DNA of 64,000 bases from Pseudomonas sp. (GTDB lineage Bacteria; Pseudomonadota; Gammaproteobacteria; Xanthomonadales; Xanthomonadaceae), in contig JASGDF010000139.1 of NCBI GenBank assembly GCA_047607345.1, positions 2,313-66,312 of the forward strand, written 5' to 3'. Under the pieces are notes generated by a model. It saw only the letters and a list, made by a program, of their open reading frames with translations, was not told the origin of the DNA and did not search any database. The position numbers were made by a program, and so were the translations under genes. Shown here piece after piece: positions 8,258 to 14,353 of this stretch (position 1 is its first letter; each line of letters opens with the position of its first letter).

Positions 8258-10709
<2,452 letters not shown>

Positions 10710-10743: not shown

Positions 10744-10774
10744 AACGCCCCGGCCACGGCCGGGGCGTTTTTTT
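10744..10774 (+). terminator. Rho-independent terminator of katG
   Basis: AACGCCCCGGCC-AC-GGCCGGGGCGTT followed by T-run. Confidence 0.85.
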
Positions 10775-10806
10775 CGGCCAGACGCTCACCTGCAGGCACT
10801 CACCAT

Positions 10807-10870
10807 GTAGGAGGGACTTCAGTCCCGACAGGCGTTACCGACCCAGCATCGGGACTGAAGTCCCTCCTGC
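10807..10870. repeat. REP doublet (REPIN-like)
   Basis: GTAGGAGGGACTTCAGTCCCGA ... TCGGGACTGAAGTCCCTCCTGC. Confidence 0.88.
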
Positions 10871-11066
10871 AAAAAGCCGGCCCCGGCGCCTCCTCGCACC
10901 CCAAAGCACCCCAAAGGGGCCAAGCACCCCAAAGGGGCCAGCACCCCAAAGGGGCCAGAGTAAATTTTCACCCCAAAGGGGCCAGAGTAAATTTTTGTTT
11001 CAAACAGATATGCACCCTGGCCCCTTTTCTGCTTGGTGTAAAAAGCCGGCCCCGGCACATCCTCGC
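10871..11066. repeat. Nested 'staircase' repeat (five copies starting CACCCCAAAG) bracketed by a 27-bp imperfect direct repeat
   Basis: Units start at 10897, 10907, 10925, 10942, 10969; flanks AAAAAGCCGGCCCCGGC(GCC/ACA)TCCTCGC at 10871-10897 and 11040-11066. Confidence 0.9.
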
Positions 11067-11077
11067 GCACTGCCGCC

Positions 11078-11488
11078 CTACATCGCGTCGATATCCCCCA
11101 GCGCGCGGATCAGGCGCCGCGCACGCTTGTCCGGCCGGTGTTGCGGCGGCTGATAGCCGGTTCGCGCGGCATCACGCAGCGCACGCACCTCCGCCCGCCG
11201 CGCCCGTGAAGCCTCGCTCTCCTCGTACAGCTGTTGTGCCACCACCGCCGGCCCGCGCTGCTCGCTGAGCCCGCGCACCACAAGCTCAAAAACCTCGTCG
11301 CCACGGCTGACACGCAACTGCTCGCCGACCCTGACCGCACGCGAGGACTTCGGCCGCTGCCCGGCCACCTCCACCTTTCCGGTCTCGATCGCCTGCTTGC
11401 ACAGGCCGCGCGTCCTGAAGAACCGCGCGGCCCACAGCCATACATCCAGGCGTACCGCCGCCAACACCACACTCTGCTCGCTGGTCAT
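11078..11488 (-). CDS. hslR: Ribosome-associated heat shock protein Hsp15 (S4 RNA-binding domain)
   Basis: VRLDVWLWAARFFRTR, RGPA..AQQLYEE, RPDKRARR. Confidence 0.92.
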   Translation of the reverse strand: MTSEQSVVLAAVRLDVWLWAARFFRTRGLCKQAIETGKVEVAGQRPKSSRAVRVGEQLRVSRGDEVFELVVRGLSEQRGPAVVAQQLYEESEASRARRAEVRALRDAARTGYQPPQHRPDKRARRLIRALGDIDAM

Positions 11489-11735: not shown

Positions 11736-13202
11736 ATGCCCAAGCTTCCCATCAACCTCGTCGAAGGCCCGATCGGGCGCAACCTGCTGCTGTTCGCACT
11801 GCCGATCCTGGCCGGCAACATCGCCCAGTCACTGAACGGCTCGATCAATGCGATCTGGGTCGGCCACTACCTCGGCGAAGCGGCACTGACCGCCACGGCC
11901 AACGCCAACAGCATCATGTTCTTCCTGATCGGCTCGGTGTTCGGCATCGGCATGGCCGCCACCATCCTGATCGGCCAGGCGATGGGCGCCAAGGACGTGC
12001 TCCAGGCACGCCGGGTGATGGGCACCAGCGCCACGTTTTTCATCGGTCTCTCGGTCCTGGTCGCCGCCTTCGGCGTCTGGCTGGCCCGCCATCTGCTCGC
12101 GGCGATGGACACACCCCACGATTCGTTGCCGCTGGCCGAGGCCTACCTGCGGGTGATCTTCCTGGCGATGCCGCCGCTGTACATGTTCGCGTTCCTGTCG
12201 GCGGCACTGCGCGGCGCCGGCGACTCGCGCACGCCCTTCCGCTTCCTGTTGTTGTCGGTGGTGCTGGACATCGTACTGAACCCGCTGCTGATCTTCGGCT
12301 TCGGTCCGTTCCCGCCGCTGGGCATCGCCGGAGCAGCATGGGCCACCCTTGCGGCCCAAAGCATCGCGCTCGGCGGCCTGCTGCTCTACATGCGCCGACG
12401 CGGCCACGTACTGTGGCTAGGCCGGCGCGACGCAGGCCTGTTCCTGATTGACCTGGCGATCCTGCGGCCCCTGGTCGGCAAGGGCATCCCGATGGGCCTG
12501 CAGATGGTGCTGATCTCGCTGGCGATGATCGCGATGATGCGCATGGTCAACGGTTTCGGCACCGATACCGCCGCGGCCTACGGCGCCGCACTGCAGCTGT
12601 GGACCTACGTACAGATGCCGGCGATGGCGATCGGCGCGGCATGCTCGTCGATGGCCGCGCAGAACGTCGGCGCACGCCGCTGGGACCGCGTCGAGGCCAC
12701 CGCGCGCCACGGCGTGCTGTTCAACTTCCTGCTGACCGCAGCGCTGATCGCGCCGTTGATCCTGCTCGACCGCTGGACGCTGTCGCTGTTCCTGCCCGCA
12801 GACAGCGAGGCCCTCAAGATCGCCCGGCATCTGAACCACATCACGATCTGGTCGTTCCTGTTGTTCGGCGTGACCTTCGTGGTCTCCGGCGTGGTCCGCG
12901 CGACCGGCGCGGTGATGCCGCCACTGGTGATCCTGATACTGGCACTATGGGGCGTGCGCGTGCCGCTGGCCGAGCTGCTGACACCCCGCTTCGGCGCCGA
13001 TGCGGTGTGGTGGAGTTTTCCGGCCAGCTCGCTGTGCGCGATGTCGATGTCGCTGGCCTACTACCGCTGGGGCGGCTGGCGCCGGGCACAGATGCTGGCA
13101 ACACAGGCCCGGGCGCAGGAGGTGGCGGTTCCGGCGGAAGTCCCGGCGCTGCCCCCGTCGCCGGTGGCCGACGCCGCAGCCGACCCCGCACCAGGTCGAT
13201 GA
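11736..13202 (+). CDS. MATE family efflux transporter
   Basis: LVEGPIGRNLLLFALP, LRGAGDSRTP, LNPLLIFG, GIAGAAWAT, AQNVGA; about 12 TM segments; start chosen at MPKLPINL. Confidence 0.9.
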   Translation: MPKLPINLVEGPIGRNLLLFALPILAGNIAQSLNGSINAIWVGHYLGEAALTATANANSIMFFLIGSVFGIGMAATILIGQAMGAKDVLQARRVMGTSATFFIGLSVLVAAFGVWLARHLLAAMDTPHDSLPLAEAYLRVIFLAMPPLYMFAFLSAALRGAGDSRTPFRFLLLSVVLDIVLNPLLIFGFGPFPPLGIAGAAWATLAAQSIALGGLLLYMRRRGHVLWLGRRDAGLFLIDLAILRPLVGKGIPMGLQMVLISLAMIAMMRMVNGFGTDTAAAYGAALQLWTYVQMPAMAIGAACSSMAAQNVGARRWDRVEATARHGVLFNFLLTAALIAPLILLDRWTLSLFLPADSEALKIARHLNHITIWSFLLFGVTFVVSGVVRATGAVMPPLVILILALWGVRVPLAELLTPRFGADAVWWSFPASSLCAMSMSLAYYRWGGWRRAQMLATQARAQEVAVPAEVPALPPSPVADAAADPAPGR

Positions 13203-13289: not shown

Positions 13290-14036
13290 ATGTCGACCGC
13301 CTGGATCTGGCTGTCCGCGCTGGGCAACAGCAAATGGTTGCTGCCTGGCGTCATGCTGTTCATCGTCACCGCCTCGGCCTCCGGCAACCTGCCGCGCCGC
13401 GACGGTCTGCGCTGGAGCGTGGCGATCGCCGCCACCGCCCTGACCGTATTGGCCTCCAAGATCGCCTTCATGGGCTGGGGCGTCGGCTCGGCCGCGCTGG
13501 ATTTCACCGGCATCAGCGGCCATGCCGCGATGGCGACCTGTATCTATCCGCCCCTGGCCGCGCTGCTCTGCGCCCATCACCCGCGGCTGCGCGGGCCGCT
13601 GATCGTCGCGGCGGCTTTGCTCGCGGCCGCCATCGCCTACTCGCGCCTGCCCTTGCACGCGCATTCGCCTTCGGAGGTGATTGCCGGAACGTTGCTGGGC
13701 GGCCTGGCTTCGCTGTTCGTCATCACCCGGGGCACGCAGCGCATGCCGGCCCTGGCAACCTGGCAATGGATCGTGCCCGCCATCGCGCTGGTATGCTGCC
13801 TCCAGGCCGCCACTCCCAAGATCAATACCCATGGCATGGTCGTCGCCATGGCCAGGACCCTTTCCGGCCAGGATCAGCTGCATACCCGGCGCTGGCTACA
13901 CCAACGTTCAGGATCATCAAGGGCATGGCAAGAAACCAGCGCAAAAAACCTTGCAAAAACAATTGACAAGCCCTCGCCGCTGGGCCAGCATGTAAGCGTA
14001 GGTCTTTCCCATATGGATTTCAGGAGTCCCCCATGA
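13290..14036 (+). CDS. PAP2-family integral membrane phosphatase (possible undecaprenyl-PP phosphatase)
   Basis: K in KIAFMGWG, C2 motif GISGHA, C3 motif SRLPLHAHSPSEV; several TM segments. Confidence 0.75.
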   Translation: MSTAWIWLSALGNSKWLLPGVMLFIVTASASGNLPRRDGLRWSVAIAATALTVLASKIAFMGWGVGSAALDFTGISGHAAMATCIYPPLAALLCAHHPRLRGPLIVAAALLAAAIAYSRLPLHAHSPSEVIAGTLLGGLASLFVITRGTQRMPALATWQWIVPAIALVCCLQAATPKINTHGMVVAMARTLSGQDQLHTRRWLHQRSGSSRAWQETSAKNLAKTIDKPSPLGQHVSVGLSHMDFRSPP

Positions 14037-14353
14037 AGAAGTTGATTGTGACGGCCATTGCCATGGCCCTGTCCTCGCCGGCGTGGGCTGCTCCGCAAGG
14101 GCCCCAACAGCCGCCGGCCCCCAGCGGCGAAATTGCCGGTCCCGTTGCGCGTGATTTCTCCCGAGTGAACGCGGCCTGCTGGGTCTACTCCGGCATCGCA
14201 GCTGCCGCGGTGGCCTATTCGGTCGTCGGCGACAGCTCCGGCGACGAAGACGATTCAGGCAGTGAGGGCACGAGCGGCAGCAGCGGCACGAGCGGTACCA
14301 GTGGCACGAGCGGTACCAGTGGCACGAGCGGCACCAGCGGCACCGGCGGCTGA
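14033..14353 (+). CDS. YjbE/GfcA-like small exported Ser/Gly/Thr-rich protein
   Basis: Signal peptide MKKLIVTAIAMALSSPAWA-AP, a hydrophobic Ala-rich stretch, then an (SGT)n tail; first gene of a wza-yjbFGH-like cluster; AGGAG RBS. Confidence 0.7.
   Translation: MKKLIVTAIAMALSSPAWAAPQGPQQPPAPSGEIAGPVARDFSRVNAACWVYSGIAAAAVAYSVVGDSSGDEDDSGSEGTSGSSGTSGTSGTSGTSGTSGTSGTGG
14267..14344 (+). repeat. Coding 9-bp (18-bp superunit) tandem repeat encoding Gly-Thr-Ser
   Basis: GGCACGAGCGGTACCAGT exact at 14285-14302 and 14303-14320, variant at 14321-14338. Confidence 0.9.

Follow-up and report, generated by a model that had tools for sequence, protein, structure and literature searches.

Ragged, 5'-anchored partial duplications recur at the terminal inverted repeats of TIRYT-family elements

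We observed that a short array between katG and its convergent neighbour is, almost certainly, a gene-less dimer of TIRYT-family end repeats (terminal inverted repeats, TIRs), with four partial copies of one motif stacked against its left side. The staircase is a family signature of TIRYT repeats and not a one-off event. We consider it rather likely that the four partial copies were written in trans by a Y1-HUH transposase encoded on another contig (C25), through repeated cycles of nicking, extension and rejoining.

A staircase of partial copies next to katG

The window (the whole stretch of DNA that was analysed, 64,000 nt of contig C139) carries starts of CACCCCAAAG at 10897, 10907, 10925, 10942 and 10969, with spacings of 10, 18, 17 and 27 nt. 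These are the five restarts of one motif from the same 5' end that had been reported in an earlier note on this DNA. The first four starts open partial copies on the forward strand, namely copy 1 (10897-10906, 10 nt, starting 9 nt before GGGG), copy 2 (10907-10924, 18 nt), copy 3 (10925-10941, 17 nt) and copy 4 (10942-10968, 27 nt). The starts were as described earlier, but not every unit is an exact prefix, since copy 2 follows the template for 16 nt and then ends in AG, one base off it. Copies 2 and 3 have 1-2 nt of microhomology at their junctions, and the junction of copy 4 is blunt, without microhomology (d=27, run-d=0). The unit lengths are non-monotonic and the staircase is thus not strictly rising. 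A locus-specific flank, CACCCC (10969-10974, +), is present in every unit, and the 10-mer is unique to this site in the genome. The array is the sole spot in the 3.72-Mb host assembly (a 228-contig draft, 87.5% complete) where a 10-mer occurs five times in 100 nt at irregular spacings of at least 8.

On the left lies the catalase-peroxidase gene katG (8478-10709, +; from the ORF list, Pfam PF00141, E 3e-68). It is followed by a GC-rich hairpin and a T run (10744-10775, +), an inverted repeat that is likely the katG terminator and that is also found in G001. On the right, convergent to katG, is an S4-domain gene (11078-11488, -; Pfam PF01479, E 2.4e-8), which we take to be hslR/Hsp15-like. An Rfam search gave nine weak matches, all far under the gathering score, and hence no known structured RNA.

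The core consists of two fused TIRs

The core of the array (10975-11028) is a head-to-head dimer of a ~29-nt TIR. The full unit does fold back on itself as had been proposed, through arms at 10975-11000 and 11002-11027 that are 81% complementary; the AT-rich spacer postulated between them was not seen, and there is almost no spacer because two TIRs are fused at a GTTTCAAAC centre. The left arm (10975-11005, +) is canonical and fits the TIR pattern that flanks the C25 gene. The right arm (10997-11028, -) is decayed, with GGGTGCAT replacing GAGTAAAT, and has no staircase on its side, the window staircase being confined to the intact left arm. The TIR core, GGGGCCAG, agrees with GGGGWSAS at 7 of 8 positions, having C at the W position. 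The GGGG(T/A)CAG-type ends named in the earlier note are the TIRs published for TIRYTs with the core GGGGWSAS. At L059, L063 and L109 the TIR has variants that carry GGGGTCAG. The TIRs are dispersed: the motif AAAGGGGCCAGAGT(A/T)AAT, of which further copies had been expected, lies on nine contigs of the host genome, and 39 dimers were present across the loci examined.

The TIR dimer has no GT(A/G)G hairpin foot and so does not classify as a REP or REPIN of the GTAG family; the adjacent doublet has this foot. The doublet (arms 10806-10828 and 10849-10871) is a REPIN of the GTAG/GTGG family, whose REP 19-mer has 196 matches in the genome, and it belongs to a different system than the TIR. It abuts the array, as stated before, with a span of 10806-10871 rather than 10807-10870.

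The bracketing repeat and the katG-hslR interval

A 27-nt direct repeat brackets the array. The left copy (10871-10897, +) begins at the REP foot, and its last C is the first base of unit 1; the right copy (11040-11066, +) is identical to it at 25 of 27 positions, or at 27 of 30 when the repeat is extended to 10868/11037. Only these two copies exist in the genome. While the repeat itself was correctly described, it is not a target-site duplication of the family: direct repeats of at least 12 nt bracket 1 of 39 TIR dimers, that of the window, as against 1 of 33 in the control, and this candidate was rejected. The bracket is probably older than the units, which hardly differ from one another, whereas its two copies differ at two positions. 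A single target duplication at the REP foot upon arrival of the dimer may account for it, or it may be the remnant of a long duplication minus one dimer.

An empty site with a single copy of the 27-bp repeat had been suggested for the katG-hslR interval. G001, the sole genome of the same genus (100% complete), has a short, unrelated spacer there, with no REP, bracket or TIR, and so offers no pre-insertion allele. At the same katG-hslR site in another genome (L009; G003:C10, ~12630-12680) we saw a related REP doublet and, behind it, some four imperfect tandem units of 12-13 nt, which are a possible REP-side duplication.

A cognate transposase lies between inverted TIRs on another contig

A PF01797 profile search of the genome gave three matches, on C133, C25 and C59. 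None is on the contig of the window, in line with the earlier statement that the window encodes no HUH or Y1 enzyme. The match on C25 is an intact 235-aa Y1-HUH transposase encoded between inverted TIRs, at 9084/9221 (+) and 10180-10206 (-); the prediction that the motif would flank a Y1/HUH gene was thereby confirmed. Close homologues in other genomes are also flanked by the same TIR, with paired ends at L041, L064, L089 and L113. The protein scores above the PF01797 cut-off and has the HVH and Y---NP motifs, the latter as YIELNP, both of them conserved. It also has ~90 extra C-terminal residues, conserved in 87 homologues and absent from the C59 RAYT, which form three helices in the AlphaFold model (pLDDT 96.6). 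The best structural match of the model is E. coli TnpA-REP, 4ER8; a PDB search with the single C25 sequence gave no match, and a profile search retrieved 4ER8.

TIRtrons, TIRYTs and the TIR families are described in the accessible text of Di Nocera et al. 2013 (PMC3733652), and TIRYTs are tied to TnpA-Y1 subclass 2.1 in that of Quentin et al. 2018 (PMC6006769). The C25 transposase probably belongs to this subclass. C-terminal similarity to Bac_DnaA_C, HTH_23 and HTH_28 is described for subgroup 2.1.2 and the 20 TIRYTs; the C25 protein has no Pfam match to any of the three at E 0.1, an absence that would be consistent with subgroup 2.1.1.

We further estimated how closely the repeat and the enzyme go together. 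A scan of GTDB genomes with an 18-mer gave 83 stretches; a match to the C25 protein was present at 19 of the 80 listed loci, all found by the TIR motif alone, and several of these 19 carry the repeat at both gene ends. The hosts of the true repeat, where named, belong mostly to the Lysobacterales. A longer TIR pattern occurred in 4 of 90 family genomes, 3 of which hold the three closest homologues, at a homologue cut-off (E 1e-90) that was picked once the data had been inspected. Some homologue at E 1e-60 is found in 23 of 89 scored family genomes. These tallies include G100, which is unpublished, and no claim depends on it alone. Viral contigs gave neither a TIR match nor a TIRYT relative, and nine plasmid records have homologues (34-43% identity).

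The other two PF01797 matches are of different kinds. C59 encodes a RAYT adjoining a REP of the abundant GTAG/GTGG family, and C133:16334-16690 (L001) an IS200-type transposase with one internal TAG stop. Adjoining the right TIRtron end on C25 is a small two-gene module (8544-9029, L002), which may be toxin-antitoxin-like as read off the translations.

Staircases recur at other TIR sites

Further copies of the repeat were expected to form staircases, and they do so in the host genome and in others. In the host, restarts just outside the TIR occur at three more loci. The C25 element has them at both ends (13 and 137 nt), together with a copy of at least 88 nt of the gene interior before its left end. 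C63 has a 204-nt restart immediately after a pilin gene, and at C196/C210 the restarts measure 13 and 31 nt, with a further 348-nt duplicate that extends across a REP into the end of a gene. The staircase pattern was present in 4 of 400 other family genomes (reversed control pattern, 0), and each of these four, all with a short staircase, has a full-length homologue of the transposase that is 60-75% identical. A metagenome scan added 15 loci. One-sided restarts were also seen at two more TIR types, at 8 of 39 matches for the GGGGTCAG type and 3 of 26 for the GGGGACGG type, denominators that contain 4 and 7 own-genome matches resembling chance. An overall count of 37 of 149 is not a rate, since it mixes unselected loci with loci chosen for their staircase. 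The loci do not support a need for the REP, in that most staircase loci have none at that position in the contexts inspected.

The number of units was expected to vary, and L096 and L129 differ in this respect at one shared site. Their upstream flank is nearly identical and the first two units are common to both, and L096 has five more 14-nt units, on the TIR side. The two loci diverge beyond the dimer, so that one flank only is in common. The five equal units could be slippage on a pre-existing repeat.

Several other TIR arrangements were seen. At C63:21135-21555 (L144), two TIRtron left ends lie 204 nt apart directly behind a type IV pilin gene; they are ~93% identical to the C25 leader, and the second is interrupted by unrelated sequence near the contig end. 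At C126:2459-2838 and C226:6977-8531 (L145, L146), TIR dimers part short AT-rich ORFs in a cassette-like manner; these ORFs have no Pfam match at E 1e-5, and one of the dimers follows a fragment with a DPLGL-like end, presumably the end of an Rhs core. A TIR dimer variant with a longer spacer was found at C120:27588-27666 (L150), seemingly inside otherwise coding-like GC-rich sequence, and a similar class of 70-76-nt dimers at L035, L058, L088, L103 and L106. Among the ORFs listed next to TIR loci, 124 of 131 were scanned; they are diverse, and a few have toxin, immunity or pilin domains, which we do not claim to be an enrichment.

Junctions lie just outside the 5' edge of the TIR

In the unselected GTDB set, where 18 of 91 sites had been split off as chance matches by record title before counting, tandem-duplication junctions fell at -10 to 0 of the motif at 10 of 51 strong TIR sites, in 7 genomes. 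Inside the TIR (+1 to +20) there were none at the same 51 sites, and at the REPs of the host genome itself there were 2 in 185 (Fisher p=0.001 and 5e-6, respectively, for sites that are not independent). Weaker TIR sites had 2 of 22 and chance matches 1 of 18; compared with chance matches of the same 18-mer, the excess (12/73 vs 1/18) was not significant (p=0.45).

Units start 5-12 nt before GGGG, mostly 6-9, with no common dinucleotide, and the start can move within one array. An exactly fixed start site, as the earlier note had it, is therefore not what the loci display. The units include flank sequence that is different at every locus, so each copy derives from the same locus or its sister. 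Their ends range from within GGGG to hundreds of bases off, giving lengths of 8 to several hundred nt, and cluster in and directly after GGGGCC, beside A and G runs. Several arrays have non-monotonic unit lengths; a tally of length order (14 vs 7) was set aside because the greedy parser overcounts the innermost unit.

Among 33 short innermost units, 19 were blunt, 9 had 1-3 nt of microhomology and 5 had 1-3 unmatched bases, against 57% blunt under a null of random joining. The unit junctions do not require homology. However, 17 of 41 generic tandem duplications in the host genome were blunt as well, vs 18 of 27 for the units (p=0.05), counted after dropping L093, a duplicate of a chance-match site. 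Since generic duplications are often blunt too, the microhomology test discriminates only weakly between mechanisms.

A nick, extend and rejoin cycle as the likely source of the units

Reasoning from the arrangement of the copies, we favour the following course of events. The enzyme would bind the intact TIR and nick the GGGG-bearing strand ~6-10 nt 5' of GGGG (9 nt in the window, which would put the nick at 10968/10969), keeping the downstream 5' end on its tyrosine. A host polymerase would then start from the free 3'-OH and synthesise into the TIR, over a distance that differs between events, with displacement of that strand; a nascent end from the sister chromatid would yield the same product. 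Either at once or following another cut, the newly made 3'-OH would attack the phosphotyrosine and so place a prefix copy just outside the still-intact TIR. Replication would fix the copy, and the cycle could repeat, with the newest unit innermost. All of these catalytic steps are inferred. HUH enzymes, as described in PMC8266576, form a tyrosine-linked 5' end and a free 3'-OH, and their strand transfer has the polarity seen in the units, a variable 3' end being joined to a fixed 5' end. Such a cycle would explain why the duplications have this polarity and carry local flank, why they can have blunt joins and long steps, why the inner TIR survives and why only the intact arm of the window has a staircase. 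The main predictions of the earlier proposal, nick-and-restart by a trans-acting HUH/RAYT-type enzyme, were borne out, and the proposal is supported as a reading, with a mechanism that is itself deduced. The array would most likely be no functional RNA or gene but a by-product of the enzyme that records its activity. Several observations count against the cycle: there is no conserved cut dinucleotide and the start zone is several bases wide, whereas characterised TnpA-REPs cut at CT or CA (PMC8266576); the A and G runs beside which the unit ends cluster favour slippage; and G065 has one TIR without a homologue at E 1e-60.

The units could also have arisen with no catalysis, if replication slipped or switched templates where the A and G runs border the TIR. 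A bound TIRYT or the hairpin would then do no more than stall the fork, and units already present would serve as slippage sites for the growth of later ones. The A and G runs at this edge, the unit ends near GGGGCC, the commonly blunt generic duplications, the microhomology of window units 2 and 3 and the equal 14-nt units of L096 all agree with this. It fits poorly with junctions that lie solely outside the 5' edge (0/51 inside), and with those at TIRtron ends without a local hairpin (C25, C63, L036, L113). Moreover, the much stronger REP hairpins have junctions at only 2 of 185 sites, units of 137-348 nt begin in the same start zone, and window unit 4 is blunt. We therefore regard slippage as unlikely, although it is the best of the alternatives.

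Repeated transposition of the element into its own end appears less likely still. Here single-stranded TIR pieces would move between loci, and the TIRYT would join them at variable positions in or beside a resident TIR, leaving stacked insertion scars. At L048, L097, L118 and L137 we saw mixed arrays in which TIRs of the GGGGCCAG, GGGGTCAG and GGGGACGG types abut, which suggests common hot spots or joining between loci. These arrays imply transfer between loci, solo dimers are scattered over the host genome, and the bracketing repeat of the window resembles a target duplication. However, every window unit has the flank of its own locus, unique in the assembly (87.5% complete), so the donor was the same locus or its sister, and bracketing repeats occur at 1 of 39 dimers only.

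An assembly artefact at a palindrome that is hard to sequence is very improbable, although it is excluded only indirectly. In its favour, the assembly is a 228-contig draft, no sequencing run shares more than 0.07 of words and the 4 mapped runs have zero depth over 10911-11051. Against it, the units vary in length and sequence, the block is 72 nt, and the same architecture is present in independent assemblies, including cultured isolates (L064, L096) and 15 metagenome contigs, and at ends without a palindrome.

Relation to known systems

The nick, extend and rejoin cycle that we favour has a close relative in the REPtron/BIME amplification model for E. coli TnpA-REP (Ton-Hoang et al. 2012, PMC3333891, Fig. 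7B; structure 4ER8). As set out in the accessible text of that paper, a nick, 3'-OH-primed synthesis and attack on the Tyr-5'P add one unit in place, and an enzyme of the same fold acts in trans. In the BIME model, however, two CT cuts delimit the whole BIME unit that is added, and its basis is cleavage and strand transfer observed in vitro. The units described here are prefixes with ragged ends, taken from a TIR that is not a hairpin, and they have no fixed dinucleotide. The same text proposes this type of reaction for BIMEs and states the in vivo mechanism to be unknown; how REP-associated transposases multiply REP repeats in the cell is likewise stated to be unknown there and in the accessible part of PMC8266576.

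The likeness to TIRtrons and TIRYTs, as far as the accessible text of PMC3733652 describes them, lies in a Y1-HUH gene between long TIRs that are not GTAG REPs, in TIRs that are also single, dimeric or clustered, in the GGGG-led core and in the C-terminal protein extension. The core GGGGCCAG differs, matching GGGGWSAS at 7 of 8 positions, a core that is common to some, not all, TIRs according to the same text. That text has singles, dimers and groups, and contains no 5'-anchored partial duplications, cut position or mechanism.

Like MITEs of DDE insertion sequences, the window element is short, non-coding, bounded by inverted repeats and mobilised in trans; it differs in having an HUH enzyme, not a DDE one, and no constant target duplication (1/39, repeats of at least 12 nt). 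The IS200/IS605 transposons (IS608, ISDra2) have the same catalytic fold and, to our knowledge, do not leave prefix duplications. According to PMC8266576, transposition in this group relies on subterminal hairpins and guide tetranucleotides, and the element moves as a whole.

The element class and the chemistry are thus already in print, and the recurring 5'-anchored partial duplications at TIRYT ends appear to be new. The openly available literature that was searched held no account of them, and a search under the name TIRYT gave only the two descriptive papers (PMC3733652, PMC6006769). Subclass 2.1 occurs in 14.9% of the strains surveyed in PMC6006769, according to its accessible text. A preprint (10.1101/2020.03.09.984088) proposed subclass 2.1 enzymes as diversifiers of lanthipeptide genes; it found no inverted repeats, and a note attached to it weakens causality.

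The staircases predict the nicked strand, the nick zone (~6-10 nt 5' of GGGG) and the product, and the cycle is therefore directly testable. If it is right, the TIRYT system would offer a compact tool for nick-primed duplication and would be a means by which gene fragments are duplicated locally. A more general notion, which we put forward tentatively and hold to be somewhat doubtful, is that TIRYTs write DNA in place: they would nick a little way outside the TIR, with no fixed cut sequence, and together with a host polymerase add a single ordered copy of 8 to several hundred downstream bases each time. Every TIR would then record such events naturally and drive local duplication, pieces of neighbouring genes included, and the staircases would give rolling-circle-like amplification, long proposed for REP repeats, its first footprint in genomes.

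Elsewhere in the window, a small ORF at 14033-14353 looks secreted and has a low-complexity tail of SGT repeats; it lies upstream of a gene cluster for polysaccharide export.
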